Shown: positions 8,396 through 28,322 of the stretch, in pieces
Numbering within the stretch: position 1 is the first letter of the stretch
How the letters are laid out: every line of letters begins with the position of its first letter
Virus record (IMG/VR): IMGVR_UViG_3300010413_000005
Span: 32,001 to 96,000 of that record
From: a virus
Direction: 5' to 3' (one strand)
Length of the DNA: 64,000 bases
Position numbers and translations under genes: made by a program
The notes under the pieces: model-generated
The model's database searches: none
What the model saw: only the letters and a program-made list of their open reading frames with translations
What the model was told of the DNA's origin: nothing

Positions 8396-8676
8396 TTCTT
8401 ATCCTTTTTCTTTTTGAGCGAATTCAATACGCGCTTGGCGATTTGGCTTTGATTGAATCTCAGAGCTCTAGTCTTGGCGGTATTGAAAGGCTCGCCGTCG
8501 TTTACCAGAGGCGTTTCCATCTTGCGAGATTTGTAAGTAACCGGCTTGAATACTCCGAATCTCGTAATTCGAACCACTTCTCCGGCGTTCACTTTCTCCA
8601 ATATGGATGCGAATATGTCCTTGATTATTTGAGGCTTTACTCGAGCGTCGCGAGCGATTTCCTTGATTCCTGCCAT
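8392..8676 (-). CDS. HU/IHF-like DNA-binding protein
   Basis: 94 aa, basic; GEVVRITRFGVFKP...METP...GEP...LRF matches the HU beta-arm pattern. Confidence 0.85.
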   Translation of the reverse strand: MAGIKEIARDARVKPQIIKDIFASILEKVNAGEVVRITRFGVFKPVTYKSRKMETPLVNDGEPFNTAKTRALRFNQSQIAKRVLNSLKKKKDKK

Positions 8677-8684
8677 GGAGTCTC

Positions 8685-11600
8685 CTATTTGTAGTTGTAA
8701 ATTTTCAAAGCTGTACCGCAGAAGTAACTCGTGCTTCTTCTTCGATCTGATTTCTTCTCTACTTCTACGGCTATCATCTTACCTATGGAAATGTGTTTGC
8801 TAATACTTCTCCAAGTGCTGGCAAAACTTATGATTTCTATGAGTTTTCCGTCCGCACTTATCAATCCTAAGAAGGCCATTTCATTGCCGTTCTTATCGTA
8901 TTTTTTTCGCACGTTAGTTACGATACCTGTATAAAATCCACCTTCTTTGGACTTATGAAATTTGTAATTGGTAGTTCTAATTTCCTTGATTTTGTCATTT
9001 TTCCATTTATAAGTAAGCGCCGGATGCTTTCCGGTGGCTATCAATTCCCAAACGTTCAATTGTTCCCAAGATTGTATTTTGGATCGAAGAGATTCCAAGT
9101 TTACAGCGAAATGCGCTTTCAGATTCTCGTATTTGGCGTTGGGAGTTACACAAGCGATTACCGGAGTGCCTATTCCCTTATCTATGATCGCTCTGTATTC
9201 ATCGAATACGTCGATATCGAACTTGGTCCGATACTGTTTTCCTCCCGGATCTTCCAAGTTGACGTTGGCGTAGCGCGCGCCCCAAAACATCTCTTTTCGT
9301 TCTCTTTCGGACGGCAAGTCTCCGGTGTGAAAGTCGCCTATTTGATTGTATTTGACTTCTACTATGACCGCGGCGACGATACATGCTTTATTCCCGTAAT
9401 CGGCGAAAAAGTCTTCATCACTCATAGAAACTATCGGCAATTTGATATTTTCTTCTATGAAGTCCTTGTACGCTTCTATGGGGTGCGTCCCGAGCGCTAG
9501 CGGATTCACTTCTGAAGAAATCAAACACAAATCTTCTTTTGAGTATTCTTCGGCGCCCTTCGCTTCTTCCAACATAGCGATGACGTCGGCATACTTCTTC
9601 TTAGCCACCAACGCCCAAATAGATTCCAGATTCTCTACCATCCATTTGACGCTGGGAACCATCCCCTCAAGAGCTCCGGCCTTGGACAGAGCCATAACGA
9701 CTCCTTTGTGGCATTTTCTCGCGTCGACTCTAGATATGAAATCCACGAAATCTTTGAATGGCTGATTGGCCATAATAGTATCTGCGGCCGCCGATCCGAC
9801 TCCTTTGATATCTATCAACGAACCTCTGATAGAACGATCGGCCGCGTCCATACTGAAATGCTTCTTGCTGACGTTGATATGCGGAGGTTTCAATTCTATT
9901 CCGTAATTTTTCTTGGCTGCTTTGGCCAATCTTTGTATCCGAACGCGCTCCGGTTCGTTCTTGAGCAACGCCCAATAGAACTCTAACGGATAATGTATCT
10001 TCAACCACATGGTCCAATAGCCTATCAACCCGTATTCGGTAGCGTGCGAATTGTGCGACACTACCGGAGGCGAATCCGGGCTGTGTCCCGCTACGAAATT
10101 GTGTCCTACGGAATCCATCTCCAAATCGTAACAATGCTCTTTACCGTTGGGCGTTATTTTGATTATTTTATCCGCGAAAGTAGGACGGCCCTTGCCCCAA
10201 CGCTTTGTCCTCTCTCCCTTTTCGTAATCCAATTTCTTGTGACAAGAATTGCACAACAAACGCAAATTGGCTTTGCTGTGAAAGGCGGCATGGTTGTAAT
10301 CGCATTCGGCTGGAGATTTGATGTGCGCCACTTCTCCGCCACCTCTGCCTTGGCGACAAATTGTACCGCAATTAGAACATCTGCTATCGGATTCTATCCA
10401 AACTTGCTCTACTTTCAATTTGTATTTGTCGTTGATACGATCCGCTTGGGCGAATCTGGTATCTTTGTTCATCCACCACGGACAATAATCCTTAGCGGTA
10501 TTTTCTCCCATAAACATCAATTCGTCGCCGACAGACAAGCCGGTAGCTATCGATTTGTACCCCCTAGAAGTCATCAACCTGTGCATTCGGCTGATGGCCG
10601 GAGTTTTGTTGCCGGATTCCGTTTCTATGACAAACGTTTCGCGAATGCCGTGATCATGTATTCCTATTAGACGTGCCGGCCGAACGCGCCCATCTTCGTC
10701 CATTTGCAAAAGATGTAATCGACCACCTCTTATCTTTTTCGCTATCGGAGTCAAACGTCCTTTTTCGTCTCTAGAATCTCTCAAACGAACCAACTCTCCG
10801 ATTTGTATTTGCGATTTAGAATGGCTATTAGCTCCTGGCTTCCAAACCCATGCGTTTTTACATATAGTCTTGTTAAATCCGTACGAGCCAAAAAATGTTA
10901 TCGCGTCCATTATCTTATTGGCAGTTTTCGCGTCGACTCCGGCGTGTTTAGCGGCGCCTTCAACGAACTTCGCGCGTTCTTTCCCCAAAGTCTCGTCGCC
11001 TATCTTCTTGGCTATCGTTTTGCGCAATGAATCCGCGGTTCCGGGAGCGAATCCGGCGATGTCTGTGAATATGCGTATAACGTGTTCTTGGTAAACTATG
11101 ATCCCCAACGTGTCCGATGTTATTTCCGATACCTTTGGGTGGAAGTCTACCTTTTTGGCCAACTTCGGATTCTTTTTGCGTTGTATGTACTTCGTAGCCA
11201 AGCCGGACCGAGCGGTCCCTGGTCTGTTCAACGCAGTCATGGCAGGTATGTCTTCGAAGTCGGTGAAGTTGATACCCATGCAAATCTTATCAGCGCTAGG
11301 CGTATCGTATTGGAAAATTCCGTCGTATTTGTGATCAGTGAATCCCTGTAGCGTTTCCGGATCGTTCAAATCGAAGTCGTCGGATTCCAAGTCCAATTTC
11401 TCTCCGGTATTCTCTTCGATCGCTTCCAAACATTCTTTGATGACGGTGAGAGTTCTCAAACCCAACACGTCTATTTTCACCAATCCCACCGCGGCGACGT
11501 TGTACATGTCGGTTGCTGTGACCACTACCGAATCGCCTCCGGATTCCGCTTTACGAACTTCCAACGGCAATAAATCGGTCAACGGGACCGGAGATGCTAC

Positions 11601-13322
11601 GACTCCGGCCGCGTGTATGCCCGGATTCTTAGCCAATCCTTCCAGGCTCTTGGCGTGATAGAGCACCTTTGGATATTTCTTATCGAATTTTCTACACACG
11701 TCGAAGTCTTTGAACGAATCGGCTATTGTCTGACTGGCGCGTTCGTCTCCGCTCGAACGCTCGATGATGCTTTTGGTTACTTGATTGACTTCCGACAACG
11801 GAACTTCCAAAACGCGAGAAACGTCCTTCAAACATTGTTTACCGGATAGTTTGCCCACGGTTGCGATCTGAGCCACTTTATCGCGCCCATACTTACTCAC
11901 CAAATATTCAAATATCTCTTGTCGTCTTCTGTCTTCGAAATCACAATCGATATCCGGCAAGTCGATACGATACGGATTCATGAATCTTTCGAATATCAAT
12001 CCGTGCTCCAGCGGATCGACAGAGGTTATTCCGAGCAAATATGCCACCAAACATCCTCCTACGGAACCGCGTCCTGGTCCGCACATGATTCCGGAGCTTC
12101 GAGCGAATTTGTACAAGTCTCTGATTATCAAGAAATACGGCACGAATTTCAATTTTACAATTGAACCCAATTCGTACTTCAACCTGTTTCCGTACGTCTG
12201 TATAGCGTCTTCGTAACTCACCCCGTTTTTGGCAGAGTATTTACGCGCTCGGGATTTGATATTCCTCCAAGCCCATCCTTCTAAACACAAATCTTTTAAA
12301 TAAGCTGTTTGATCTCCGCGATATTTATCAGGTACGGATAAGTCGGGCAACAAGGCTTGGTGGTAATCGACTTTGAATTCCACGTTACACATTTCTGATA
12401 ACTTCACAGTTGAATTCAAAGCTTCCTTGACGTCTGTTACGGAGAAAAACGGATGGTATTTGAAGAAAGCGGATTTCATTTCTTTCCGCTTTCTCATATG
12501 AAATTCGTTCCCGTCGAATTTGAATCTGTTCGGATCGCTCATGAAGTTATTCGTACCGATACACAACAAAACCTCGTGATGTTCGGAATCGCTCTGGTGT
12601 ACGTAGTGCGCGTCTTGTGTTGCCAACAGCCTATTGGACTTCCCGTATCTCTTGCGCAACTCGAGAGCGAATTTGTTGGCCGTCAATTGGTCCGGAATGT
12701 TGTGCGGTTGGACCTCAATCCACAGATTACTACCGAACTCATCTCTCAATCGATCGGCAAATTCGATCGCGAACCTTTTCTTACCCAGCACGCATGAATC
12801 GTATACCGGACTAGCCAGACATCCCGTGCCCAAACTGATTCCTTCTTTGTACTCGCACAAAGCTTCAAGATCGATTCTCGGTTTGTAATAAAATCCGTCG
12901 ATGTAAGCCGAACTGGACAGTCTGAATAGGTTCTTCAATCCCTCCGAGTTGTGCGCCCAAGCCGTTATGTGCCAGCGTTTTGATATGCCGTGTTTCTCTT
13001 CGTATTCCTTGATGACTTTCTTGGCTTCTGCTCCCTTCTTGCCTTCTGAAATCTCGTTCTTTTCCTCCGCGGTCAATCCCTTCCTGTGCATATTATTACA
13101 CACGTAAAATTCGATTCCGTATATCGGCTTCACGTCGGTTCCCTTGCACTCTTCGTATTGGTGCATATATCCGCGCATGGTTCCGTGATCGGTAAAAGCG
13201 ATCGCCGGATTGCCTCTTTGTTTGGCTTCTTCTACGTAGTCCTTGATTTTACTTCCACCATCCAAAGTAGAATTATCACTATGCGTGTGCAAGTGTACGA
13301 AGTCTTCTTTTTTATTTGGCAT
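8685..13322 (-). CDS. dnaE: DNA polymerase III alpha subunit (family C), intein-containing
   Basis: PHP domain FVHLHTHS/AFTDHG, GPGRGSVGG, catalytic PDIDCDF, GIHAAGVV, KIDVLGL, YGFNK/SHA split by an intein, C-terminal OB-like region. Confidence 0.97.
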   Translation of the reverse strand: MPNKKEDFVHLHTHSDNSTLDGGSKIKDYVEEAKQRGNPAIAFTDHGTMRGYMHQYEECKGTDVKPIYGIEFYVCNNMHRKGLTAEEKNEISEGKKGAEAKKVIKEYEEKHGISKRWHITAWAHNSEGLKNLFRLSSSAYIDGFYYKPRIDLEALCEYKEGISLGTGCLASPVYDSCVLGKKRFAIEFADRLRDEFGSNLWIEVQPHNIPDQLTANKFALELRKRYGKSNRLLATQDAHYVHQSDSEHHEVLLCIGTNNFMSDPNRFKFDGNEFHMRKRKEMKSAFFKYHPFFSVTDVKEALNSTVKLSEMCNVEFKVDYHQALLPDLSVPDKYRGDQTAYLKDLCLEGWAWRNIKSRARKYSAKNGVSYEDAIQTYGNRLKYELGSIVKLKFVPYFLIIRDLYKFARSSGIMCGPGRGSVGGCLVAYLLGITSVDPLEHGLIFERFMNPYRIDLPDIDCDFEDRRRQEIFEYLVSKYGRDKVAQIATVGKLSGKQCLKDVSRVLEVPLSEVNQVTKSIIERSSGDERASQTIADSFKDFDVCRKFDKKYPKVLYHAKSLEGLAKNPGIHAAGVVASPVPLTDLLPLEVRKAESGGDSVVVTATDMYNVAAVGLVKIDVLGLRTLTVIKECLEAIEENTGEKLDLESDDFDLNDPETLQGFTDHKYDGIFQYDTPSADKICMGINFTDFEDIPAMTALNRPGTARSGLATKYIQRKKNPKLAKKVDFHPKVSEITSDTLGIIVYQEHVIRIFTDIAGFAPGTADSLRKTIAKKIGDETLGKERAKFVEGAAKHAGVDAKTANKIMDAITFFGSYGFNKTICKNAWVWKPGANSHSKSQIQIGELVRLRDSRDEKGRLTPIAKKIRGGRLHLLQMDEDGRVRPARLIGIHDHGIRETFVIETESGNKTPAISRMHRLMTSRGYKSIATGLSVGDELMFMGENTAKDYCPWWMNKDTRFAQADRINDKYKLKVEQVWIESDSRCSNCGTICRQGRGGGEVAHIKSPAECDYNHAAFHSKANLRLLCNSCHKKLDYEKGERTKRWGKGRPTFADKIIKITPNGKEHCYDLEMDSVGHNFVAGHSPDSPPVVSHNSHATEYGLIGYWTMWLKIHYPLEFYWALLKNEPERVRIQRLAKAAKKNYGIELKPPHINVSKKHFSMDAADRSIRGSLIDIKGVGSAAADTIMANQPFKDFVDFISRVDARKCHKGVVMALSKAGALEGMVPSVKWMVENLESIWALVAKKKYADVIAMLEEAKGAEEYSKEDLCLISSEVNPLALGTHPIEAYKDFIEENIKLPIVSMSDEDFFADYGNKACIVAAVIVEVKYNQIGDFHTGDLPSERERKEMFWGARYANVNLEDPGGKQYRTKFDIDVFDEYRAIIDKGIGTPVIACVTPNAKYENLKAHFAVNLESLRSKIQSWEQLNVWELIATGKHPALTYKWKNDKIKEIRTTNYKFHKSKEGGFYTGIVTNVRKKYDKNGNEMAFLGLISADGKLIEIISFASTWRSISKHISIGKMIAVEVEKKSDRRRSTSYFCGTALKIYNYK
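10050..10868 (-). mobile_element. Intein (273 aa) with HNH homing endonuclease in DnaE
   Basis: Interrupts the conserved FNK|SHA. Starts TICKNAWV; block B SRMHRLMT; block F CYDLEM..HNFVAG; ends VSHN before Ser+1. Internal CSNC...AHI...NLRLLCNSCH HNH/Zn motif. Confidence 0.92.
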
Positions 13323-13584
13323 TTTCTTCTATCAAGTACAGAGCGACGTCTTTCAAATCTTCCGGATAATCTCCGAATACTATTTCGTCCAGCACCGACG
13401 GTTCTTCAGCTCCCATCTCGGCCAGACTTCTTTTTTTGCCGTTTATCGTCAATTTCGCGTCGTATCCCCTAACGTCGATATCATATTCCAATTTCTCTTT
13501 GGCGATATTGAATGACGAATTGGTAGGCAGTCCGGAGACTCGAGCTCCGGACGCCCATTGTCTTATCTTCTTCAAAGACGGCAT
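13312..13584 (-). CDS. Hypothetical protein
   Basis: 90-aa ORF bridging thyX-like and dnaE with tight spacing/overlap. Confidence 0.7.
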   Translation of the reverse strand: MPSLKKIRQWASGARVSGLPTNSSFNIAKEKLEYDIDVRGYDAKLTINGKKRSLAEMGAEEPSVLDEIVFGDYPEDLKDVALYLIEENAK

Positions 13585-13587
13585 GCG

Positions 13588-14607
13588 CTATTCGTTCTCT
13601 AATCTTTCTCCGGTCCAAGGATTCCTTTGCCAGAACACTGCGTATTCCGCGGCGCGATCGATCATCTCGTAAGCCATAGGAACCTTGTATTTGTGCAACG
13701 TATCGATTTGATGAGCTTTCGATATATCTTCTTGTTTCCCCATCTGTTCAGGTATTCTGTGGTGACGGAAATGAAGAGGACAAGGAGGATGTTGATCCAA
13801 TCCTTCGTACCGACGTCGATTCTCTTCGTGATAGACGCATCCGGAAAAACAATCGTCCTTGATACACGGAGGGCAAACCAGTTCCGCGAACGCCGGATGG
13901 ACCTTGTTGACCAGTTCGCTTACTATTCCCATGATGACTGGACCCCACAACCCCAATTGCAAAATGAAACAACCTCGTTCTCCGACTATGTGTTGCAACG
14001 AACTGATGTTCATTTTCCAACTCATACGGTGTTGAGATGCGAGCGGCATCGTATCCCGAGCGTCTTCCATAGGTATGTTGCTAGCCACCAAGAAATTGTA
14101 AGTTAGCTGTATTCTCTCCATCAGATCGACGTACGCCCTCAACACGTTAGGATCTCCGTGTCTCAAGATGCTTTCCGGTATGCGATAGTCGCTATCGGTA
14201 AAGAATCGACCTTGATTCCGGATGCGCATTGACTGCGACCAGAACGACGATTTGGCCAGGTCTGGTACAATGTCCATGTAGATATCGGCTCCGATCGATT
14301 CCGGTCCTGGAAGAACTCCGATTCTGTGACGCACGGCTTGTTCCCTCCAAGATATCGAAATGTGTTCCAACATGAAAGTGAAGTCGATGTGTTCTCCTAC
14401 CGGTATGCGTTGTTTTATCACCGAGTGAAAAACGTCTTGCACTTCTTTCGCCGATACCTTCGAATACACTTGGTCCGGAGTCAATAACTCGTCGTCGTTT
14501 TTCGAAGCTTGCCAAACACTGTAAATCGTTTCCAACGGAAACGCTGTGAAAGTCAACAGCGTGACTTTCGGAGTCTTTACCAATCTTTTGTTCGCATTAT
14601 TTTCCAT
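13588..14607 (-). CDS. thyX: Divergent flavin-dependent thymidylate synthase (ThyX-like)
   Basis: EHIDFTF, EQAVRHR, SQSMR, EDARDTMP, MNISSLQH..ER, Cys-rich C-terminus; RBS GGAG. Confidence 0.85.
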   Translation of the reverse strand: MENNANKRLVKTPKVTLLTFTAFPLETIYSVWQASKNDDELLTPDQVYSKVSAKEVQDVFHSVIKQRIPVGEHIDFTFMLEHISISWREQAVRHRIGVLPGPESIGADIYMDIVPDLAKSSFWSQSMRIRNQGRFFTDSDYRIPESILRHGDPNVLRAYVDLMERIQLTYNFLVASNIPMEDARDTMPLASQHRMSWKMNISSLQHIVGERGCFILQLGLWGPVIMGIVSELVNKVHPAFAELVCPPCIKDDCFSGCVYHEENRRRYEGLDQHPPCPLHFRHHRIPEQMGKQEDISKAHQIDTLHKYKVPMAYEMIDRAAEYAVFWQRNPWTGERLENE

Positions 14608-15181
14608 TTCGATCTCCTTTCGTCAATATGCTAACCGCCAAGTCCCAAAGTCCTTCCGGCGATGTGTGATCTGTGATCAATTTCCACACGCGTGGTACGT
14701 GTTTCCCGATTTGATCGGAGGCGTAATCCAACCGATTGTTTATTCGTTCGGCGTTCTCGGGCATCCTAATTCCCACCCTGCCAACCGAAGTTTTGATGTC
14801 GCACATCAAATGGATGTAAGTCAAATCGGTTCTGGATTTGATGATGTCTATCCACCATTGTAACGTTTCTTCGGCCATTTCTCGATTGAAAAAATCTCCG
14901 TCTTCCAACCCGTACGCGAACGCTGACGGCATCGAACGATCTAACACACATTCCAACGACGTGAATTTGGATAACAAATCCGCTACGAATAGATCTTCTA
15001 CGTACGAATTGAAAGGGATCCTGAATCTCCTCAGTTTCAATTCCAATTCCTTGGCGTGTTTGAAATGAATTGCTGTGTCGTCCTTGAATGCTCTTACGAT
15101 AGGGATATTGAAATATCCACTGACTTTTTTGGCTAGAGTCGTTTTACCGACTCCGTTCATCCCTTCGATTATCACTAACAT
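14597..15181 (-). CDS. dNMP / thymidylate kinase-like P-loop kinase
   Basis: IIEGMNGVGKTT, VLDRSMPSAFAYG. Confidence 0.88.
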   Translation of the reverse strand: MLVIIEGMNGVGKTTLAKKVSGYFNIPIVRAFKDDTAIHFKHAKELELKLRRFRIPFNSYVEDLFVADLLSKFTSLECVLDRSMPSAFAYGLEDGDFFNREMAEETLQWWIDIIKSRTDLTYIHLMCDIKTSVGRVGIRMPENAERINNRLDYASDQIGKHVPRVWKLITDHTSPEGLWDLAVSILTKGDRNGK

Positions 15182-16368
15182 CGTGATTTAGCTTCCATCG
15201 CCGAATGTGCTTGTTCCAGAATAGACAATCCGTAATCGAGATCGTCAAGTGTGATATTCAGCGGAGGAGTGATTTTCACCGGTCCTGGTCCCTTCCGGAA
15301 CGCTCCTATGAGCAGACCTCTCTTCAAACATTCCTGCCCCAATTCCAACACGTCGTGCGGACTATCGTACGCTATCAACAGGCCGGTTCCTCTAACGTTT
15401 TTCGGATATCCGATTTTGCCCAACACGCTTTTGACGTGAGACGATTTGCCGTTTATCGAATCCATGTTGGGCGAATACTCCAGATAGTCCAACATACCGT
15501 TCACGTGCGCCATACCGATCGGATTACCTCCGAACGTAGAGAAGTGAGTTCCGGAGGTGAATGTTTCGCTAAACGGTTTCAACGCCAAACAAGCTCCGAC
15601 CGGGCATCCCATAGCTACTCCCTTGGCCATCGTCATTACGTCCGGCTGTACGCCTATCTTTTTCGCGTAAGAGAAATCTCCGCAGCGTCCGGCGCCGGTT
15701 TGGACTTCGTCGAATATCAACGTTATGTTGTGTTCGTTACACTTGACTCTCAAGTCGATCAACCAGTTGTGATCGTATTCTCGGACGTCGTTGTTGCCGA
15801 ATACTGGAGCTATGAGGACCGCGGTGGCCAAATATGGATCTATCTCTTCCAGATGTTCGAATTTTCTGAATCCTCCAGTCAGCGGTCCGAATCCCTCTGT
15901 GTGGTGCGGAGGACCGTCGCCGGCCGATAGCGATCCCAGAGTTCGGCCATGAAATGATCCTTTCACTGTGTAAATGTATTTGCTACGTCCTGATTCGTAC
16001 GTAAAATCTGATTTGAATCTCTTGTATTGATACAAACGCGCCAACTTGATCGCCGCTTCGACCGCTTCGGTTCCGCTGTTACAAAAAAACACCTTATCCA
16101 TACCGGTCAAATAACACAGACGTTCCGCGGCGATGTTTCTCTCCTCGAAGCTGAACAGATTGGGAACGTGAACCGGAGTGTGATTCCCTTTCATATCGCT
16201 AATCACTCTTTCGTGACACACGGAACAATATCCCAACGACGAAGTTCCGACGTCGCAGAAGAAATCCAGGAATCTCTCTCCGCGTCTGGTAATCAAATAA
16301 GATCCGTTTCCCGATACGAACTCGGGAGCGTATTGATTCAAAGTATTCATCAACGATTTGTTACACAT
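15175..16368 (-). CDS. Class-III PLP aminotransferase (ArgD/ornithine aminotransferase-like)
   Basis: NSGTEAVEAAIKLAR, SFHGRTLG, FDEVQTGAGRCG, PLP lysine in MAKG, HFSTFGGNP. Confidence 0.92.
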   Translation of the reverse strand: MCNKSLMNTLNQYAPEFVSGNGSYLITRRGERFLDFFCDVGTSSLGYCSVCHERVISDMKGNHTPVHVPNLFSFEERNIAAERLCYLTGMDKVFFCNSGTEAVEAAIKLARLYQYKRFKSDFTYESGRSKYIYTVKGSFHGRTLGSLSAGDGPPHHTEGFGPLTGGFRKFEHLEEIDPYLATAVLIAPVFGNNDVREYDHNWLIDLRVKCNEHNITLIFDEVQTGAGRCGDFSYAKKIGVQPDVMTMAKGVAMGCPVGACLALKPFSETFTSGTHFSTFGGNPIGMAHVNGMLDYLEYSPNMDSINGKSSHVKSVLGKIGYPKNVRGTGLLIAYDSPHDVLELGQECLKRGLLIGAFRKGPGPVKITPPLNITLDDLDYGLSILEQAHSAMEAKSRC

Positions 16369-17273
16369 CTATTGTCCTCCGCTAATCTGGTTATGTCCTT
16401 CCAATTGTATACCCTTGTGATGCTTTCGTGTTCCACGGATTTGTTTTTAGGAGTGTCGTAAAGTAAAACCTTGATTCCGGCTTGCGCCAATGATAATGCG
16501 TTCCTATCCAAGTCTTCTACGAAAAAAATCGGCCATGCCGGAGAAATGTGTCTGTAAACCGCCTCTACTTTGTCTCTGTTGAAAAGCAATATGTCGTACG
16601 GTATTTTGTATTTGCGCAACCACCATAAGGTATCGTGATACATTCTCTTGAATTGCCATTGCGGTCGCGCCGTTATTATGGCTATCTTATACCCCATCGA
16701 TTTCAATTTTCTGATTCCGGTAATCGCTCCGCGGATCGGTTTCAATTCCCGGAGGAATCCCTTCGAATGCAATTCATCCTTGTATGCTTCGATTTCGTCG
16801 AATCCCTTGCCTCTGTATTCTCTTTCGCTTTTAGAACGCAGAGCGTTGAAATCGGTTATCACGTCGTCCATGTCCAAACAAATCAACTTGGTGAACTTGG
16901 ATAATTTGAATTTGGCCGCGGTCGCGCGCGTCGATATCACTTTGGTTTTGCTATCGAACACCTTGGCTATGTCTTCCGGTTCGATTCCGTACACCAAAGA
17001 CAAAGAAATCGTGATTTTCAGAATATCCACCAATTCCTCTACCACATTACGTTTATCGGGAGAGTGTGTGTCCAAAAGGTGTCGTTTGTAGGAAGGTGAC
17101 AAACGAGCCAATTCGCCCACTTCTTCGTACAACAACATCGTCAGATCTTGAATCGCTCGAGTCGCCTCTAAATTGCTCATGCAAGACGAATCCATTCCGA
17201 ATTCCTTCTGCTGTTCTTTTTGCAGCTTCCAGAATGCGTCCAAGGATCTATCGAGCGATTTCTTACTTTCCAT
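16350..17273 (-). CDS. MazG/dUTPase-like NTP pyrophosphohydrolase fused to HAD 5'(3')-deoxyribonucleotidase
   Basis: N-terminal EEVGEL...EELVDIL (MazG ExxE...ExxD); C-terminal HAD motifs LDMDDVI, ITAR, K, FVED. Confidence 0.85.
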   Translation of the reverse strand: MESKKSLDRSLDAFWKLQKEQQKEFGMDSSCMSNLEATRAIQDLTMLLYEEVGELARLSPSYKRHLLDTHSPDKRNVVEELVDILKITISLSLVYGIEPEDIAKVFDSKTKVISTRATAAKFKLSKFTKLICLDMDDVITDFNALRSKSEREYRGKGFDEIEAYKDELHSKGFLRELKPIRGAITGIRKLKSMGYKIAIITARPQWQFKRMYHDTLWWLRKYKIPYDILLFNRDKVEAVYRHISPAWPIFFVEDLDRNALSLAQAGIKVLLYDTPKNKSVEHESITRVYNWKDITRLAEDNRCVTNR

Positions 17274-18258
17274 CGCCTACTCCCTTTTTCCTCCAACCCC
17301 AATGCTTAGCCAAATCGTACGCTTGCTCCATGACGACGTCGACGGTGGCGCGCGGATTCCAACTCGCGAACCGACCCAACGGCGCGACTCTTTCCGGCCA
17401 TTGAGGAGGTTCCGCCAATGGTAGCAAATGCCCTTTCATATTCCTTTTCCATTCCAGTATTTCGAATCCGTTGGGGAATAGAAAATTCAAATCAGAATAA
17501 ACTCCTGATTCGTTCATTTCTCCGGATACTTCACACGAATAGAATCCGTCTACGTATGACAACCTGTGTATGGAATTTCCCGGAGTGTACGGTGTGTAAA
17601 CGTAATCCCAACGAACGTACGGATTGCCTACCGGTTTCACGTTTATCAAATGCAAGGCCATCGCCGTAGAATCGGGAAAGTGTTCGAAATGTCCTATCTT
17701 TTTGATGATCCACAACGGTATGGTGAATACCAAATAATCGAAATCGAACGTAACGGCGTTGGTGTTTATCGCGATTCCGGCGTCAAGAGAGAACGTAGCT
17801 ATAGCGCTATTGTTTATATTGGCTCGTTTGCCCAATTCTTCTATCAACGCGTTCAAATCACATCTCATGCCCTTTTTCGTGTTACCGGAGAACGGATCGT
17901 TCATGCACTTGGTAGAGAATTCGCTGGGTTCCATCTTGCGCGTTTTTACGTAATGATCGTGCTGTATACGCTCAAACGCCTTCCGTCCTACTTTCTGCAT
18001 GTGTTTACGATAGTCCTTGACTTCTCCTTGTAAGTGTATCCCTCCCTTTATGGTGAAGTTGCTGTACGCCAAACCGAGTTCTCCGAGCATCGATCTGATC
18101 AGATTACTTTTGTGTAGATACTTCAATCCTCCAGAGGAGAACTCTCCTCCCAATTTGTTGGGTTCGAATACCGTCACTTCGATATCGTAAAATTGATTGA
18201 AAACGTAAGACGCGACCAACCCGGAGATTCCTCCTCCTACCACAATTACTTTTTTCAT
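17263..18258 (-). CDS. FAD-dependent oxidoreductase (UDP-galactopyranose mutase / protoporphyrinogen oxidase-like fold)
   Basis: Rossmann VIVVGGGISGL, FE...LGG, C-terminal LGRFASW. Confidence 0.85.
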   Translation of the reverse strand: MKKVIVVGGGISGLVASYVFNQFYDIEVTVFEPNKLGGEFSSGGLKYLHKSNLIRSMLGELGLAYSNFTIKGGIHLQGEVKDYRKHMQKVGRKAFERIQHDHYVKTRKMEPSEFSTKCMNDPFSGNTKKGMRCDLNALIEELGKRANINNSAIATFSLDAGIAINTNAVTFDFDYLVFTIPLWIIKKIGHFEHFPDSTAMALHLINVKPVGNPYVRWDYVYTPYTPGNSIHRLSYVDGFYSCEVSGEMNESGVYSDLNFLFPNGFEILEWKRNMKGHLLPLAEPPQWPERVAPLGRFASWNPRATVDVVMEQAYDLAKHWGWRKKGVGDGK

Positions 18259-18311
18259 AAAACGTCCTTAAATACAAAACGCCCACCACGGCCGGAGATC
18301 GAAGCAGCCAT
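18255..18311 (-). CDS. Putative 18-aa leader peptide (uORF)
   Basis: GGAGG 9 nt before ATG; MAASISGRGGRFVFKDVL*; its TGA overlaps the ATG of the flavoprotein gene (ATGA). Confidence 0.4.
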   Translation of the reverse strand: MAASISGRGGRFVFKDVL

Positions 18312-18323
18312 AGCAGGCGCCCT
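18276..18323 (-). promoter_or_regulatory. Strand-specific 19-bp G.U-rich RNA hairpin followed by U-tract (terminator/attenuator-like)
   Basis: Minus-strand RNA AGGGCGCCUGCUAUGGCUG-CUUCGAUCUC-CGGCCGUGGUGGGCGUUUU then GUAUUU; uninterrupted pairing with 8 G.U pairs. Confidence 0.7.
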
Positions 18324-18324
18324 C

Positions 18325-19209
18325 CTAAACACGATTCGAAACCTCGTCCAAATCGGTTCCGGAAGGTGACCCTATGATACCTTCACCGATGAATCTACAT
18401 ATAATTTCTGCTACTATGGCTATCCCTTCTATATCCATTTTTCCAGTTTTGGTGATGAACTTGCCATCCGAAAATTCTATCAAAAACAGCTTTTCTATTT
18501 CTCCTTTTCGAAAACATTCCAGAGGAGCAGCTATCCTAATTTCAGCCTTTCTGATGCGTATGGATGGACAAATAGCGGCGACCGCTACGCGGCGATTCTT
18601 AGGCAACTCCAAATACACAGACATGTAACGGCTGTTCTTCATCCTATCGATTACCACCAAATCTCCGACCGAAGCGTTTTTGGATCGCGAAATTCTCTTG
18701 CCGGAAATATTGGACAACCTTTGGAAGAATCTCATACAGAAATCTCGCGCTCGATCCAATGCGTCGCTGGCAGCCGTTCTTTTGGATTCGGTGATTTTCT
18801 TTTTCGTGCTATCGTCCATCGGAGACGCTTTACGCAAAGACGTAACGTTTTTACGCCTTTTGGCTTTCACCGCGGAAACCTCCGGTTTTGATTTTGTAAT
18901 TCTGCCATTTACTATTCCCCAAGCTTCGATAGTCTTGTTCAACAACGCTATCAAATCTTCGTCTTCCAAATGTGTGAAACAATACGTTCGGCGATCTCCG
19001 TCTTCGTCGGTGATTCTTTCGCGTCGCATGTAATTGGATACTCTGAGACTATTCGATTTGCAATGTTTCCTCAACGCAACACATCGATTCCTCATCACGC
19101 AAGGCATCTTATCGATCGGAGAATCTCCTTTTCGTTCTCCGTCGCATTGCGTATCTTTACGGGAATAATACCCGAAACATCTAGGGTACTTTTTTTTGTT
19201 TTCGAGCAT
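18325..19209 (-). CDS. Hypothetical basic protein with Cys-rich N-terminus
   Basis: 294 aa; CFG..C..C...C cluster; overlaps the end of the sigma-like gene. Confidence 0.7.
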   Translation of the reverse strand: MLENKKKYPRCFGYYSRKDTQCDGERKGDSPIDKMPCVMRNRCVALRKHCKSNSLRVSNYMRRERITDEDGDRRTYCFTHLEDEDLIALLNKTIEAWGIVNGRITKSKPEVSAVKAKRRKNVTSLRKASPMDDSTKKKITESKRTAASDALDRARDFCMRFFQRLSNISGKRISRSKNASVGDLVVIDRMKNSRYMSVYLELPKNRRVAVAAICPSIRIRKAEIRIAAPLECFRKGEIEKLFLIEFSDGKFITKTGKMDIEGIAIVAEIICRFIGEGIIGSPSGTDLDEVSNRV

Positions 19210-20209
19210 CTGAAAGCTTTTTTACCAGTTGTGAATACCAAGTCACGTAATCTGACACATATTTCCAAGTGTATTCAGCTCCTGAAACACCTCCTGTAAT
19301 CAAATTGTATTTACCCTCTAAAACCAAAGTCTTATGAATCTTTCCCTTCTTCAAGAACAGTACCGCTCCCCAATGGTAGTAATGAACCTCTCTCGCCCAT
19401 TCTCCGGCCGATTGGATATCCCTGGCCGGATCGTTAGGTCTGGGATCAAGATTGCGTTTCTTGATTATCTTTCTGACGAAATCGTAATCGAATTTGTTAT
19501 TCTTGCTTAGGTGTATCATGGGCCAAGTACCCTTGTCTATATATATCTGTGATATCTCGGGAAATTCTGATTCTGCCAGATACGTAAACGCCCTCCTGAT
19601 TCGTAGGCTGGAATAGTCGACCGCGTTCTTGCTCACACCGATATACTTGGCTATCAATCCGTTGGTCATCTCGGATTCGCCTTCGTTGTCCATGAAAATC
19701 ATGAACGCCTCCGGTGGATGACACATGATATCCAAAACGGTCCGATCTCGTTCGCACAACTTGTTTCTCAATTTCATTTTCAATTCCAGGCGACGCTGGT
19801 TGTCTTCGGATTGTTCGTAAACGGAATACGGATCCGGGATGTCTCCCTTGATAGTTTCTCCGGATTGCTCGGCCATCTCTTCTATCGAGACTAACTGCCA
19901 AGCCTGTTTGGAAACTATCATCCGTCCGTTTCTTTCTTGAACTACGTGCGGAACCTTGGAATTGGTCATAGAATTCTGTATTATTCTTATGGCTTCGTAT
20001 CTCAAAACCTTACTGACGAATCTGTGGAATTTACCTCTTCCGGCGTTGAAATCGTACGAATCGAAACACCTCTGAAACATGGCCACGCGCAATTCTTGCA
20101 TTGCGTCGTCGAACGGGATACCGGAAGCGATGTTGATTTTTCTAGCGTGCGTTTTCAGAATTGGCCATACGTGCTTTTCCAAATCCGCGTACAATTCTTG
20201 TAAAACCAT
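19181..20209 (-). CDS. RNA polymerase sigma-70-family-like factor
   Basis: Region 2-like DDAMQELRVAMF..FDSYDFNAGRGKFHRFV; region 4 HTH-like NGLIAKYIGVSKNAV; start moved to ATG 20209 (RBS GGGAG). Confidence 0.7.
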   Translation of the reverse strand: MVLQELYADLEKHVWPILKTHARKINIASGIPFDDAMQELRVAMFQRCFDSYDFNAGRGKFHRFVSKVLRYEAIRIIQNSMTNSKVPHVVQERNGRMIVSKQAWQLVSIEEMAEQSGETIKGDIPDPYSVYEQSEDNQRRLELKMKLRNKLCERDRTVLDIMCHPPEAFMIFMDNEGESEMTNGLIAKYIGVSKNAVDYSSLRIRRAFTYLAESEFPEISQIYIDKGTWPMIHLSKNNKFDYDFVRKIIKKRNLDPRPNDPARDIQSAGEWAREVHYYHWGAVLFLKKGKIHKTLVLEGKYNLITGGVSGAEYTWKYVSDYVTWYSQLVKKLSDARKQKKVP

Positions 20210-21824
20210 TTCGATCTCCCTTTTTACCGAACAACTTCTTTCCCAGACCACTGTACAAAGCCAAGGGTAAATCATCCAATTTCATTATCGCGGAACAAAC
20301 GGCTCCGGTTTTCTGATTGTAAAATGCGGCCACATCTATAGTAAGCACGCCTATGGATATCACTTCTATTCCGGATTTCGTTATCGTTTCCACAGATTCA
20401 GCCAAATGGTTGGCTAAAATACCACTGTCGCATCCGTACGCCAAGGGCGCTCCGTCCGACAATACAATCAACACTTTGCGCTTTTCTTGTCGCACTATCA
20501 AACGTTTAGCAGCAGACAAAATCGCTTCTCCGTCCGCGTTATCCATGTATCCGTCGATGAAAGAGAATCTACTTCTGCACACATTTAGTCTTTCATCGAA
20601 TTCCTTGAATACTATGTAATCGAACGGCGCTCGAGCCTGATATATCTCGTCTTCGAAGTTGATTCCCTTCGGATATCTTTCCACATTGTTGTGAAATCCC
20701 AATACTTCAAACGGGATTCCCAATCTCTCTATGGTGTCGGATAATCCTACGGCGGATACTCTTACGTGCCAAGCCTTGGTCTTTTTCTTTTTCGCCTTGC
20801 CCATGGAACCGGACAAGTCAATCAAAATCAATATCGCTGTTGAAGTATCGACCGGAGCTCCGCGTTCATAATGCACGTTTCGATTACCGGTTATGACCGA
20901 ATGTAGAGAAGAAGAATCCAGAAATCCGCTATCTCGGTCGCCGATCGGAGCGCGTTCCTTTTCCGCTCTCATTGTTTCGATAATCGCCCTGCGCATCGCC
21001 GAAGCATTCTTCTTCGTTTCTGACAAGTCGGATACGAACGTGGACGCGTTTCCGGTAGTCGGTTTCACCCAACGGTCCATGGCCAAACAATCCGGATGCG
21101 GAATGTATCTGCCATTCTTCAACACGTCGTTCTTTGATTCCTGTTCGATTTTGTCTTTCAATCGCGATTTGAAATCGAAAGATTGCTCTCCGGCCGGAGG
21201 GATGAACGAAATCATAGGAGATATCTTCTTGGCCAATTCGTATGTACTTTCGGAATCGGCAAGCGATTTCACAGACAAAAACATCTCAGATATCGGTTCG
21301 TATTCGGATCTAACGTGATCCGGAATCCACCTCAAATCCAGATTCAACCCGTCGGATATCGCTGCGCACAAAAGCATTTTGAAGTCGGACAATTCTCCGG
21401 CCTTGGATTGCTTCTCTAACAACTTCGACGCCTCATTGTTGGAGAAATCCAGATTGTCTTTCATTCCCGGATAAATCGCGCCGTATTTCAATTCTATTCT
21501 GATGTCTTCCAAAGCGTTGAATGCCGACTTCACTTTCACGTCGGATTCGTTTTTGTACAGATCTACGGCGCCCCTCAAACCGCGATTCTTGGAATACACT
21601 TCTTCGGCCGCGTGACACAATTCGTGATCCAGTTCTCCGTTCAACGCGCGCATTGAGGACTTGCCCAGTTTGTCCGAATTGTAAGGCAATCTTATCACGG
21701 TTCCGTCGAAATCACAACGGCATCCGGTCATTTCCACTGATACGTGGTAATTGTTCGATATCGCGCGCGCTATGTTAGCGAACGGAGTCTCCAGCTTCCG
21801 GAGGTGTTGAACAGATTTTTTCAA
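20142..21824 (-). CDS. CobT-like VWA-domain protein
   Basis: N-terminal HELCH and NALEDIRIE; MIDAS IDLSGSM, NADGEAI, VLSDGAP. Confidence 0.85.
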   Translation of the reverse strand: MKKSVQHLRKLETPFANIARAISNNYHVSVEMTGCRCDFDGTVIRLPYNSDKLGKSSMRALNGELDHELCHAAEEVYSKNRGLRGAVDLYKNESDVKVKSAFNALEDIRIELKYGAIYPGMKDNLDFSNNEASKLLEKQSKAGELSDFKMLLCAAISDGLNLDLRWIPDHVRSEYEPISEMFLSVKSLADSESTYELAKKISPMISFIPPAGEQSFDFKSRLKDKIEQESKNDVLKNGRYIPHPDCLAMDRWVKPTTGNASTFVSDLSETKKNASAMRRAIIETMRAEKERAPIGDRDSGFLDSSSLHSVITGNRNVHYERGAPVDTSTAILILIDLSGSMGKAKKKKTKAWHVRVSAVGLSDTIERLGIPFEVLGFHNNVERYPKGINFEDEIYQARAPFDYIVFKEFDERLNVCRSRFSFIDGYMDNADGEAILSAAKRLIVRQEKRKVLIVLSDGAPLAYGCDSGILANHLAESVETITKSGIEVISIGVLTIDVAAFYNQKTGAVCSAIMKLDDLPLALYSGLGKKLFGKKGDRNGFTRIVRGFGKARMANSENAR

Positions 21825-24535: not shown

Positions 24536-25932
24536 CTTCTGTCCTCAACTTCCTTCTCCCGGATTCTCATCTTGTGATATTCAGCGAGCGCCGGAACGAT
24601 CTTGCCGGATTCTCCGTCGCGATGTTTCGCTATGAACAAATCGAGCGCTTTCTCCGGTCCTTCTTCCGGAGCTTCAAATTCCTCGTCAATCTCTTCGTCG
24701 TCTTCGGTGACCTTGACTTCTTTCTTCCTGTTCTGTTTGCCGTAATCCGGATCGTTCACGCTGATAATCAAGTCGGCAATTCGAGCCTTGTCGTAGCTTT
24801 CGGCCGTCCCTTCAGCCATAGCCGTTTTATCAGCCCACTGAGAACCAGCGTGAACGCTGGAATATATGGCGTATCCTTCGTCTTCTCCTAACCCCTTGGC
24901 TCTCCAATAAACCTCAGATTGCTGCAGCCGAAATTTCTCTCCTCTCATATTCGTGGCCAATATGTGATCCAACGAATCGAAACAAATCAACTTCGGCCGC
25001 CAACCGTCGAATTGTTCTTTCAAATCCTCCAAAAGCGTAATCACGTCTTCGAACGTTGCGGACCGGACCGGGAACGAGGCGATTTTCAATTTGTTATTGA
25101 ACTTCTTGGCCATCTTTTTGTAGCGCTTATCGATGGCTCGAGCGTCCTGCGGTGTGAGATTGTAACCCTTCAAATCCTTGTAGTTCATTCCCAACCACAA
25201 AGCATCAGCTCGAGTCGCGACCTGGCGCGCCGGCATTTCGAACGGTATCACAAGAGTCTCATATCCCTGCTTTATCGAGTGGTACGCCAGATTGTTGAGA
25301 GCGATCGATTTGCCTTTACCGGTCGTTCCCATTATCAGACCCAACTCTCCTATTCGCAACCCCTTTGTTATATTGTCTATCGTCTTCCATCCGGTCATTA
25401 TCGCTGTTACTTCGTCCGGATGTTCTCTTTCGTATTTTCTGGCGTCTTGACGATCGTAAAACTCCTCTACCCAATTGATCAGAGTGTACTTTCTCTCCTC
25501 AACTTTCTTTTTGCTGGCTTCTCCGAAAACCTTGTAAACGTCGTCCAAGTCTCCGTCTTCGAGATGTTTTGCCCCCTGTTCCAAAGCCAGCTGCGCGTTT
25601 ACATACAAAACGAATTTCTTCAATCGCTCGAGCGCCAATTTCGGATTATCCGCGCGTTTCTTGGCTATCCTCTTCACCGCTTGCAGATGGGATAGTCTCT
25701 CCTCTTGTTTCCTGCGGAAGTTCTCCTTGGCTATGGCCATGTACATTTTCGGAGTCGGAGTCTCTCCGAATTGCGTCAAAGAGTATCTCAACACGCTCCA
25801 AATCCAAGAGCGCTCCTTGCTTCCGAAATGATGAGCGTCGCAGATCCGGATGGCCTGTTTCGCGTACGCCTTGTCGCGCATCGCACAAGCTAAGATGGTT
25901 TCTTCAAACTCTTTATCGAACTTACGATCCAT
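24532..25932 (-). CDS. dnaB: Replicative DnaB-family helicase
   Basis: TGWKTID..TKGLRIGEL, GTTGKGKS, FEMP, FDSLD, ADLII, IAKHRDGE. Confidence 0.92.
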   Translation of the reverse strand: MDRKFDKEFEETILACAMRDKAYAKQAIRICDAHHFGSKERSWIWSVLRYSLTQFGETPTPKMYMAIAKENFRRKQEERLSHLQAVKRIAKKRADNPKLALERLKKFVLYVNAQLALEQGAKHLEDGDLDDVYKVFGEASKKKVEERKYTLINWVEEFYDRQDARKYEREHPDEVTAIMTGWKTIDNITKGLRIGELGLIMGTTGKGKSIALNNLAYHSIKQGYETLVIPFEMPARQVATRADALWLGMNYKDLKGYNLTPQDARAIDKRYKKMAKKFNNKLKIASFPVRSATFEDVITLLEDLKEQFDGWRPKLICFDSLDHILATNMRGEKFRLQQSEVYWRAKGLGEDEGYAIYSSVHAGSQWADKTAMAEGTAESYDKARIADLIISVNDPDYGKQNRKKEVKVTEDDEEIDEEFEAPEEGPEKALDLFIAKHRDGESGKIVPALAEYHKMRIREKEVEDRR

Positions 25933-26596
25933 TATATCCCATAGATTTGGACATTTCTGTTGCTTCTTTGGTTCTGTAATCTCCTCCTAACATTTCCACT
26001 GTTTTATATTTCCCAGTAAGCATTGAGCTGATCGTCGGACCGTACGATTCACGCAGATCCTTTTCACTGAGATTGGAAGCCAACAACGTAGGGAAAGCGT
26101 TGTCGTATCTGTTCTTCAACAGAGCTTCCAAACGAGAAGCCAAGAACCCACTTTTCGAAGTGTGCTCTTTGCCCAGCTCGTCTATGAACAGAAAATCGGA
26201 GTTCAAACAATATCGCAACAGTTCGGCCGCGACCGGACTGTCGAATCCGATTTTGATATTGGTATCCAAATCGCTCAAAGTGGTGTAATAAATCCTGTAC
26301 CCTACTCGGACCGCTCTTCCCAAGATGTAACAGCCGAACATGGTTTTTCCGTTGCCGTTATCGCCCACGAATAGCAATCCGTATCCATTGTTGTACGCTC
26401 TGTGTAGTTTATTCTTGTATTTGAGCACTACCGACTGAAAGATATCCACGTTGTGTGTGACGTCCGACGATTTGACGTACCAATGAATCGATGGAACACA
26501 ACCCCTGTAAAGAGCCAAGTCGTATCTGTGTTTTGAGTTCTTCAGGTTGTATTTTCTGTCCATCGCGAACGATAGGACTTCGCTATCACTTCTCAT
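25922..26596 (-). CDS. DnaC/IstB-like helicase loader
   Basis: GLLFVGDNGNGKT, FLFIDELGKE, RY...PTLLASNL; between initiator and DnaB. Confidence 0.88.
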   Translation of the reverse strand: MRSDSEVLSFAMDRKYNLKNSKHRYDLALYRGCVPSIHWYVKSSDVTHNVDIFQSVVLKYKNKLHRAYNNGYGLLFVGDNGNGKTMFGCYILGRAVRVGYRIYYTTLSDLDTNIKIGFDSPVAAELLRYCLNSDFLFIDELGKEHTSKSGFLASRLEALLKNRYDNAFPTLLASNLSEKDLRESYGPTISSMLTGKYKTVEMLGGDYRTKEATEMSKSMGYNGS

Positions 26597-28184: not shown

Positions 28185-28189
28185 TCGAG

Positions 28190-28237: not shown

Positions 28238-28322
28238 AATGGGAGATTCGAATATCTTGGTACAGTGCCTTTTGGCGATTAAGTTAGTATAGCGCTTTTC
28301 GCTCGGAGCTACTGATTTTTTT

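Follow-up and report, generated by a model that had tools for sequence, protein, structure and literature searches.

A DnaE-adjacent cassette of ThyX-like, aminotransferase, kinase, MazG-HAD and flavoprotein genes in an uncultured phage: a candidate route to an amino-bearing pyrimidine nucleotide

The gene run beside DnaE

The 64,000-nucleotide stretch of DNA analysed here (the window) comprises bases 32001-96000 of a complete 113.8-kb phage genome from IMG/VR (record IMGVR_UViG_3300010413_000005). Beside its DNA polymerase gene, DnaE, lie five genes for a flavoprotein, a MazG-HAD fusion, a class-III aminotransferase, a thymidylate-kinase-like kinase and a divergent ThyX-like flavoenzyme. Together they may make a C5-substituted, probably amino-bearing deoxyuridine (dU) nucleotide before replication, a reading that we hold at about even chances. 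An earlier prediction for this DNA (the original prediction) had described five overlapping, co-oriented genes that continue through a 90-aa open reading frame (ORF) into the polymerase. All six ORFs were indeed located on the (-) strand, running into DnaE, with adjacent genes either overlapping by 7-19 nt or spaced by 3 nt. The genes, in window coordinates and in the direction of transcription, are as follows.

17263-18258, (-) strand: flavoprotein, 331 aa; Pfam NAD_binding_8/DAO
16350-17273, (-) strand: fusion of a MazG-like domain and a HAD nucleotidase, 307 aa; Pfam dUTPase_2 and NT5C/HAD
15175-16368, (-) strand: class-III aminotransferase, 397 aa; Pfam Aminotran_3, 1.5e-66
14597-15181, (-) strand: thymidylate-kinase-like P-loop kinase, 194 aa; weak Pfam AAA_28/dNK matches, PHROG 'thymidylate kinase'
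13588-14607, (-) strand: divergent ThyX-like flavoenzyme, 339 aa; Pfam Thy1, 2e-17
13312-13584, (-) strand: 90-aa ORF between the ThyX-like gene and DnaE, with neither a Pfam nor a PHROG match
8685-13322, (-) strand: DnaE polymerase, 1545 aa; Pfam PHP, DNA_pol3_alpha (pol3_alpha), finger and HHH_6

The source annotation called the aminotransferase as a 339-aa protein (P0279, 85% coverage). Conservation of the N-terminus in relatives favours the 397-aa ORF, whose overlap with the upstream gene is 19 nt. The 90-aa ORF was poorly conserved, being matched among relatives only in loci L011 and L018 (27-40% identity), and its membership in the module appears doubtful. A promoter and terminator scan of 8400-19400 returned nothing above shuffles, and no internal regulatory sites were supported. 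A primase, a MoxR ATPase, a CobT/VWA protein and two genes without assignment are located upstream of the operon, and RecA, SbcCD-like genes, RuvC and a 5'-3' exonuclease downstream; these flanks place the operon in the middle of a replication module. DnaE is the presumed consumer of the module's product. The polymerase carries an insertion of approximately 250 aa (residues ~813-1063; window ~10130-10890, (-) strand) that is missing from the homologues in L004 and L001. Alignments with the DnaE proteins of relatives cover only residues 4-812 and 1064-1542, a pattern consistent with an intein.

The phage genome has a GC content of 47%, direct terminal repeats and a CheckV completeness of 100%. 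Its last ~144 bases (113675-113818) repeat the first ~144 (1-144), which fits the 'direct terminal repeats' class and a complete genome. Near-identical DNA was present in sequencing runs from several studies, some of them possibly its source, labelled marine sediment, sediment and soil metagenomes; all of these were contigs, and no RNA run was listed among them.

Predicted active sites of the cassette enzymes

The synthase had been predicted to be of the ThyX rather than the ThyA type, and both sequence and structure agreed. The protein scored 64 bits against Pfam Thy1 (cut-off 24.8), its AlphaFold2 model (predicted local distance difference test score, pLDDT, 89.6) displayed the ThyX fold, and ThyA (PF00303) was absent from this genome and from every relative checked. 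A phmmer search of PDB with the single sequence gave no match, and Thermotoga maritima ThyX (TM0449) was reached by profiles only. Foldseek aligned the model with this enzyme at a TMt of 0.74-0.78 (E 7e-9) and 18% identity. The likeness to TM0449 extends to the fold, the RHR motif and the equivalents of R78, R90, R147 and R174, which correspond to R93, R128, R184 and R211, respectively, and are invariant in 44 family representatives. The R80 equivalent, R95, was at least 90% conserved among 58 locus sequences. Because the arginines that bind dUMP are invariant, the substrate is most likely still a uracil mononucleotide.

Elsewhere the ThyX-like protein departs from TM0449. In all members the compact RHRx7S signature is broken by an insertion of 20-25 aa between RHR and S-x-R (FWSQSMR). 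Neither T. maritima His53, the residue that stacks on folate (the folate complexes 4gt9 and 4gtf were among the Foldseek matches), nor Tyr91 is conserved; the aligned positions hold Gln, Arg or Ile in the first case and Ile or a variable residue in the second. An extension of ~100 aa follows the ThyX core. Four cysteines are invariant, C213 located two residues past the R174 equivalent and C248, C257 and C276 within the extension, and this Cys4 pattern suggests a metal site.

A profile search of 1.84 billion representatives recovered 222 ThyX-like clusters at E < 1e-30; the family has at least 222 clusters at 50% identity. No family member was found in 185,579 prokaryote species genomes, and from these searches the family looks virus-only. 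In the complete 55-kb phage G011, two Cys-rich ThyX-superfamily paralogues lie 3 kb apart (L098:3437-4318 and L098:7031-7987). One is compact (RTHR...SESHQ) and the other carries the insertion, and the four-Cys pattern was also seen in a G011 paralogue. The presence of two such genes hints at non-redundant functions and argues that not all family members are plain dTMP synthases.

The aminotransferase found its best PDB matches in acetylornithine aminotransferases (2.6e-57), followed by succinylornithine, putrescine and ornithine aminotransferases. The pyridoxal phosphate (PLP) lysine, Lys249, as well as Asp220 of DEVQxG and Arg142 of FHGR, were invariant in 18 clade sequences. In class-III enzymes the EPxQGExG motif holds the glutamate switch (Glu235 of ornithine aminotransferase, OAT), the C-terminal arginine is Arg413 of OAT, and the FHGR-type arginine binds the distal carboxylate in ornithine-type enzymes. 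In 18 of 18 phage clade sequences EPxQGExG is replaced by APV(L/F)GNN, and the Arg413 equivalent is Lys in the subgroup of the window and Arg in the other. Approximately 95 phage-type relatives exceeded 40% identity, many of them on ~100-kb contigs, with the first cellular ArgD appearing at ~38%. A site remodelled throughout the clade with Lys249, Asp220 and Arg142 retained argues for a conserved new substrate rather than decay. This observation indicates a probable substrate other than that of ArgD, still anionic, and a nucleotide phosphate is one candidate for the anionic group.

In the fusion protein, the N-terminal half is a MazG-like/dimeric-dUTPase-like pyrophosphohydrolase (aa ~11-120; dUTPase_2 match aa 16-120), and the C-terminal half is a HAD 5'(3')-deoxyribonucleotidase (aa ~124-299; NT5C/HAD match aa 121-297, HAD_2 being among the Pfam matches). 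PHROG matches to an NTP-PPase and a 5'-3' deoxyribonucleotidase, together with a PDB match to mitochondrial deoxyribonucleotidase (8e-3), agree with this division. The metal-binding EExxE...ExxD motif, DMDDV, the HAD motif III Lys and the motif IV acidic pair are all present, and residues E50, E51, D83, D134, D136, K235, E253 and D254 were at least 90% conserved across the clade. The kinase matched PHROG 761 'thymidylate kinase' at 1.6e-9 and possesses a GMNGVGKTT P-loop and a DRS motif resembling the DRY/DRH of Tmk, with G7, G12, K13, D81 and R82 conserved. It fell below the cut-off for Pfam Thymidylate_kin (PF02223), which the homologues in relatives match weakly, and BLAST disclosed no similarity to the 5-hydroxymethyluracil (5-hmU) DNA kinase of phage M6.

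The flavoprotein (Pfam NAD_binding_8, 5.2e-5) has more than 120 viral or metagenomic homologues of ~320 aa, none of them named. Foldseek placed its AlphaFold2 model (pLDDT 93.6) among amine oxidases, UDP-galactopyranose mutases (UGM) and renalase. The top VIA-align matches were eukaryote-type UGM (Z 26.7, 323 of 331 residues, root-mean-square deviation 3.3) at an identity of only 14%. These were followed by protoporphyrinogen oxidase (Z 23.5) and by bacterial UGM, L-amino acid oxidase and monoamine oxidase at Z of about 21. No match to the GLF domain was found in Pfam, and the nearest named clusters in the ESM Atlas were Amino_oxidase. The model thus points to a UGM/amine-oxidase fold, and the fold does not give the function. 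Invariant residues include GxGxxG, E32, R107, R232, R296 and R303, and the arginines are compatible with a phosphorylated substrate.

Four roles had been assigned to this neighbourhood by the original prediction, namely a synthase, a deoxynucleoside monophosphate (dNMP) kinase, a pyrophosphohydrolase/nucleotidase and a polymerase. All four are present at the level of domains and motifs, and the motifs are conserved across the clade.

Distribution of the cassette and counterparts in other phages

A gene-neighbourhood comparison, proposed with the original prediction as a check, found the five families clustered in other contigs, so that one of the outcomes named there as refuting did not occur. 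The IMG/VR loci recovered with the ThyX-like protein (five) and with the flavoprotein (22) all hold the five families between CobT-side genes and DnaE, and the set adjoins DnaE in all of the roughly 20 distinct viral contigs related to this one. The DnaE proteins of these contigs share between 68% and 44% identity with that of the window, and the one in L090 shares 35%. Three internal orders occur: ThyX, aminotransferase, kinase in most; aminotransferase, ThyX, kinase in L013, L017, L018 and L019; and aminotransferase, kinase, ThyX in the window and L028. The arrangement of the five families is more than chance.

A search with the ThyX-like family profile found 68 IMG/VR loci, approximately 28 of which carry an aminotransferase, a MazG-HAD fusion and a kinase within 7 kb. 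Two other contexts were seen. At L002, a primase, an MCM-like protein and a very divergent flavin adenine dinucleotide (FAD) protein precede MazG-HAD, ThyX, aminotransferase and kinase. A sulfotransferase-family gene (L002:12518-13291; Sulfotransfer_3, 6e-8) lies directly after this kinase and may be an extra tailoring step. In G001 (L005), a complete 101-kb phage, ThyX, aminotransferase, a 149-aa ORF and the kinase are located beside a SNF2 helicase and an M23 peptidase, with MazG-HAD ~15 kb off and no flavoprotein homologue. From these comparisons the minimal conserved set is the ThyX-like protein, the aminotransferase and the kinase (with MazG-HAD), and the flavoprotein is frequent in the module without being obligatory.

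Among GenBank phages, blastn of the region gave no match, nor did tblastn of the flavoprotein or of the kinase, and tblastn of the MazG-HAD fusion gave weak nucleotidase matches only. No cultured phage in GenBank had a ThyX above ~30% identity to the ThyX-like protein. Class-III aminotransferases were essentially absent from bona fide GenBank phage genomes, the matches being host-like records. In the original prediction this combination was not known to have been characterised, and we likewise found no paper describing the five families together.

The closest counterpart in cultured phages was found in the Pbunavirus PB1, a Pseudomonas phage whose genes concerned here have homologues in F8 and 14-1. 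PB1 gp61, named 'FAD-dependent thymidylate synthase', matched the ThyX-like family hidden Markov model (HMM) at E 8.6e-23 over positions 4-307 of 314 (hhalign 99.1%), with four Cys aligned (R-x-C in the core helix; PxC...C...C in the extension), and is a distant, full-length member of the family. PB1 gp68 (333 aa) weakly matched the flavoprotein, by hhalign at 81% over the N-terminal 120 residues and by the clade HMM at 3.7e-6, and gp57 is a DnaE of 34% identity. The order gp68, gp61, gp59 (polynucleotide-kinase-like, PNK-like) and gp57, with other genes between them, parallels flavoprotein, ThyX, kinase and DnaE. PB1 differs from the operon in having neither an aminotransferase nor a MazG-HAD fusion (its MazG is separate, gp51), in the PNK-like gp59 in place of the Tmk-like kinase, and in a gp61 without the 20-25-aa insertion; gp59 resembles neither the MazG-HAD fusion nor any of the clade HMMs. 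A 2025 preprint reported that the Pbunaviruses F8 and 14-1 carry hypermodified thymidines, nucleosides of 362 and 390 Da that occur in TG motifs and account for about one T in four (PMC12191111). These phages were long thought unmodified, and their biosynthetic genes are unassigned, the known ones being absent (PMC12191111). In contrast to the amine proposed here, the side chain found at the TG motifs of Pbunaviruses is of the sugar-alcohol or pentose type, and the motif specificity of this modification points to a DNA-level step. The mass of 362 equals dU (228) plus an aldopentose (150) minus O (16), as expected for reductive C5 alkylation by a pentose, a match that is suggestive only.

Comparison with characterised systems revealed both shared logic and different enzymes. 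The 5-hydroxymethyl-dU Bacillus phages SPO1, SP8 and phi-e and the hydroxymethyl-dC phage T4 likewise combine a thymidylate-synthase-type enzyme, a pyrophosphatase and nucleotidase, a dNMP kinase and their own polymerase, and in SPO1/phi-e-type phages T is classically excluded by the pyrophosphatase and nucleotidase pair. Unlike this operon, the SPO1/T4-type systems use ThyA-fold hydroxymethylases and have no aminotransferase or amine-oxidase/UGM-fold flavoprotein. The post-replicative clusters of M6, ViI, PaMx11, PhiW-14, SP10 and SH-Ab 15599 resemble the operon in placing a thymidylate synthase homologue, a kinase, and PLP and flavin enzymes near a polymerase. Their products bear amines on C5 side chains, 5-aminomethyl-dU being a PaMx11 intermediate (PMC5889632, PMC8989533, PMC11472151, PMC13458397). 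The defining enzymes of M6-type clusters are a ThyA-type dUMP hydroxymethylase, the 5-hmU DNA kinase (5-HMUDK), aGPT-Pplase, a radical-SAM isomerase and a PLP decarboxylase, whereas the PLP enzyme here is a class-III transaminase. Bacillus phage SP-15, with its two Thy1 genes, makes 5-(4',5'-dihydroxypentyl)uracil as a dNTP, starting from ribose (PMC5977210). It is like the operon in that a ThyX-family gene occurs in a phage whose C-C-linked C5 side chain is built at the nucleotide level, and unlike it in that no aminotransferase is described; its Thy1 proteins did not match the ThyX-like family profile at E <= 1.

Other nucleotide and DNA-modifying genes of the same genome, in genome coordinates, are given below.

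31497-32129, (-) strand (its first 43 codons being window 1-129): uracil-DNA glycosylase (UDG)-superfamily gene, 4.1e-29, at the replication module's edge and adjoining the 5'-3' exonuclease
25480-29060 (L007:7480-11060), upstream of the window: block of an N6_N4 DNA methylase, a canonical thymidylate kinase, a 322-aa gene without assignment, an MT-A70 methylase and a cytidylate kinase
20252-21070: Dam-type methylase
1549-2058, 3350-4204 and 16224-16808 (L006): nucleoside-2-deoxyribosyltransferase-like gene, radical-SAM gene and DUF7768 gene, respectively

UDGs have been found alongside T-modifying replication systems (PMC13697223). Three DNA methyltransferases are encoded upstream, and the cytidylate kinase is unusual for a phage. 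The nucleoside-2-deoxyribosyltransferase-like and radical-SAM families also occur near the ThyX-like gene in a group of phages with a PolA-type polymerase. Both this genome and G003 encode the canonical Tmk, which G004, G006, G005 and G001 lack, and in several complete relatives the cassette kinase is the sole Tmk-like gene. The idea that a canonical Tmk common to all these phages makes the cassette kinase redundant was rejected, since these other complete relatives do not have one.

A proposed pathway and its competitors

The domain assignments above are observed; from them we infer each step of the following pathway. The five genes are translationally coupled and would form one nucleotide-tailoring module feeding the adjacent DnaE. 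The MazG-like domain would convert dUTP and/or dTTP to the monophosphate, supplying dUMP, and the HAD nucleotidase would strip the unwanted canonical dNMP, most plausibly dTMP. The ThyX-like enzyme would bind dUMP and place a carbon substituent onto C5 by flavin-N5 iminium chemistry, with reduction to the methyl left unfinished or with a non-folate donor. Its simplest product would be 5-hydroxymethyl-dUMP; ThyX gives a hydroxymethyl product when the exocyclic-methylene intermediate is trapped. The UGM/amine-oxidase-fold flavoprotein would oxidise or otherwise activate the side chain, and the aminotransferase would convert a carbonyl on that chain to a primary amine, as in going from 5-formyl to 5-aminomethyl. 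The Tmk-like kinase would form the diphosphate and host NDP kinase the triphosphate, which DnaE would polymerise. The route from dUMP through 5-hydroxymethyl-dUMP, 5-formyl-dUMP and 5-aminomethyl-dUMP to the diphosphate is the most economical guess, and a plausible one.

Several observations support this pathway: the coupling of the genes, the retention of the set in about 20 contigs across three orders, and the adjacency of the ThyX, aminotransferase and kinase trio in two other contexts. The catalytic motifs of all five proteins are intact and conserved. The aminotransferase motif is remodelled, and the ThyX-like protein lacks the folate-stacking His and Tyr91 yet has gained an insertion and the Cys4 extension. 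PLP and flavin tailoring enzymes next to a thymidylate synthase homologue and a kinase are a signature of thymidine-hypermodification clusters (PMC8989533, PMC13458397). The likeness to PB1 gp61 and gp68, the two G011 paralogues and the flanking UDG gene are in agreement with this. We read the module as one of the phage pyrimidine replacement or hypermodification type, built from enzyme families unused in any characterised pathway. What is new here is a ThyX-like family that looks virus-only, about half of it in the PolA-type group with no cassette-specific change of the active site, a flavoprotein whose fold is nearest to UGM, and the link to PB1 gp61 and gp68.

A wider proposal, which we advance tentatively and consider doubtful, is that PB1-gp61-type ThyX proteins are a new flavin-dependent class that alkylates dUMP at C5, by stopping at the methylene or hydroxymethyl stage or by using non-folate aldehydes. 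In the DnaE lineage the UGM-like flavoprotein and the transaminase would then aminate the side chain of the mononucleotide, a way to amino-modified thymidine that would be wholly pre-replicative and independent of ThyA. The same class would also explain the thymidine hypermodification of Pbunaviruses.

A number of findings weigh against the proposed pathway. Approximately 35 of the 68 ThyX-like loci are without aminotransferase, flavoprotein, fusion and kinase. They belong to the PolA-type group (the non-cassette loci among L034-L101, e.g. L070:5921-6952, L084:5017-5676 and L061:3400-5487), in which the ThyX-like gene lies directly upstream of PolA. Its neighbours there are a YfbR-like HD 5'-deoxynucleotidase, a nucleoside-2-deoxyribosyltransferase-like gene and DUF6378, with a radical-SAM/SPASM gene in 10 loci, a layout that recalls the M6 order of thymidylate synthase homologue, HD hydrolase and PolA. 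Virtually all conserved residues are common to cassette and non-cassette ThyX-like proteins, the sole systematic difference being K36/R, and for this reason the reaction is probably the same with or without the aminotransferase. In the tree the non-cassette sequences form nearly one clade; with PB1 as outgroup the branches are long, and the direction of cassette gain or loss cannot be inferred from it. The ThyX-like gene is the only thymidylate-synthase-type gene in this genome and usually the sole Thy1 in relatives. The protein could simply be a viral dTMP synthase, which the phage may need for ordinary T.

Further points weigh on the same side. At least one complete relative, G001, has no flavoprotein, and within the DnaE lineage a replication module passed down vertically could account for much of the cluster's conservation. 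A canonical thymidylate kinase (PF02223, 6e-40) and a cytidylate kinase (3.9e-54) are encoded, and given the former, complete replacement of T is not implied. At the sensitivity of BLAST and Pfam the known hypermodification enzymes were not detected: M6 gp51-gp58, used as tblastn queries on this genome and every locus, matched only PolA. Ordinary shotgun metagenomes assemble the whole genome. The original prediction stands in part: its genes are clustered with motifs intact, but the ThyX-like protein is not specific to the operon and one complete relative or more can do without the flavoprotein.

The main competing explanation is ordinary nucleotide supply, which we consider unlikely and nonetheless take seriously. 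Here the ThyX-like protein would be a dTMP synthase, the kinase a dTMP kinase and MazG-HAD a T5-type housecleaning pair (dUTPase and nucleotidase), with the aminotransferase and flavoprotein an unrelated metabolic pair acting on ornithine, polyamine or glutamate. The intact dUMP-binding arginines, a ThyX-like gene that is the sole thymidylate synthase in all genomes checked, and the roughly half of loci that have the same conserved residues and no aminotransferase are all as this explanation expects. So are the best characterised relatives of the aminotransferase (ArgD, AstC, OAT and putrescine aminotransferases), the amine-oxidase-type fold of the flavoprotein, and synteny that, in one phage lineage, may be inherited rather than selected. 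However, the aminotransferase stays by ThyX and the kinase through shuffles of order and in two foreign contexts, and its motif is remodelled clade-wide, unlike that of a borrowed host ArgD. A plain dTMP synthase fits poorly with the loss of the folate-stacking His and the gain of a Cys4 extension, and a second plain dTMP kinase would be redundant with the separate canonical Tmk of this genome. In addition, the Pbunavirus relatives carry modified T (PMC12191111).

The loss of the His53 equivalent throughout the family also fits a reading in which a PB1-gp61-type ThyX joins a non-folate aldehyde (an open-chain sugar or a semialdehyde) to flavin N5 and passes it on to C5 of dUMP in a reductive step, yielding a 5-(substituted alkyl)-dU. 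The flavoprotein would prepare or oxidise a sugar-type chain, and the aminotransferase would aminate its carbonyl. UGM, the best structural neighbour of the flavoprotein, forms a flavin-N5-sugar iminium on a uridine-nucleotide substrate. ThyX takes formaldehyde via an N5-carbinolamine (titles of PDB 7ndw and 7ndz), the F8 nucleoside mass of 362 fits dU plus aldopentose minus O, and SP-15, with two Thy1 proteins, makes 5-dihydroxypentyl-dU from ribose (PMC5977210). Yet the SP-15 Thy1 proteins fall outside the family profile, and the TG motif and quarter-of-T extent of the Pbunavirus modification suggest a DNA-level step (PMC12191111). The PB1 gp68 match is weak (81% probability, N-terminus only), and the cassette is without sugar-nucleotide genes. 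This reading is entirely inferential, and we judge it rather improbable. The related proposal in the original prediction, that ThyX attaches a transaminase-derived aldehyde, has become less likely, since about 35 of the 68 ThyX-like loci have no aminotransferase and share the same conserved residues.

All characterised thymidine hypermodifications follow a post-replicative logic (PMC5889632, PMC8989533), under which the ThyX-like enzyme would make 5-hmdUMP for incorporation, the kinase would act on DNA like the 5-hmU DNA kinase, and the flavoprotein and aminotransferase would tailor the base in the polymer. The flavin-dependent lyases of PaMx11 act on DNA (PMC11472151), and the Pbunavirus modification is motif-specific (PMC12191111). 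Against such a scheme, the kinase has Tmk-type motifs and PHROG and Pfam affinities with no BLAST similarity to M6 gp54, aGPT-Pplase was not found by BLAST, and the MazG-HAD fusion points to control at the level of the pool. Class-III aminotransferases, moreover, have buried small-molecule sites. Post-replicative tailoring thus seems to us decidedly improbable for this operon.

Least probable is folate-independent synthesis of ordinary dTMP, with the flavoprotein and aminotransferase supplying a one-carbon donor (formaldehyde or iminium) to a folate-blind ThyX: the lost His53 equivalent, the formaldehyde released by amine-oxidase-type flavoproteins such as sarcosine oxidases, the acceptance of formaldehyde by ThyX (PDB 7ndw title) and the sole thymidylate synthase would fit, but the same ThyX-like enzyme occurs in PolA-group phages and in G001, where flavoprotein and/or aminotransferase are missing, and it is not obvious what an ArgD-like enzyme would contribute to C1 supply.

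To our knowledge, all characterised phage thymidine modifications start from a ThyA-fold hydroxymethylase. If true, the pre-replicative pathway proposed here would add a route via ThyX, a transaminase and a UGM-like flavoprotein, with a new reaction for the ThyX fold and a nucleotide substrate new for class-III aminotransferases. DNA labelling and synthetic biology would also profit from enzymes able to produce amino-functionalised dNTPs in vivo. Through PB1 gp61 and gp68, the hypothesis becomes directly testable in a cultured phage family that is used therapeutically and has no assigned thymidine-hypermodification genes. Uncultured sediment and soil phages of ~100 kb form a large clade marked by this module, and their DNA may evade or resist standard restriction-based defences and tools.

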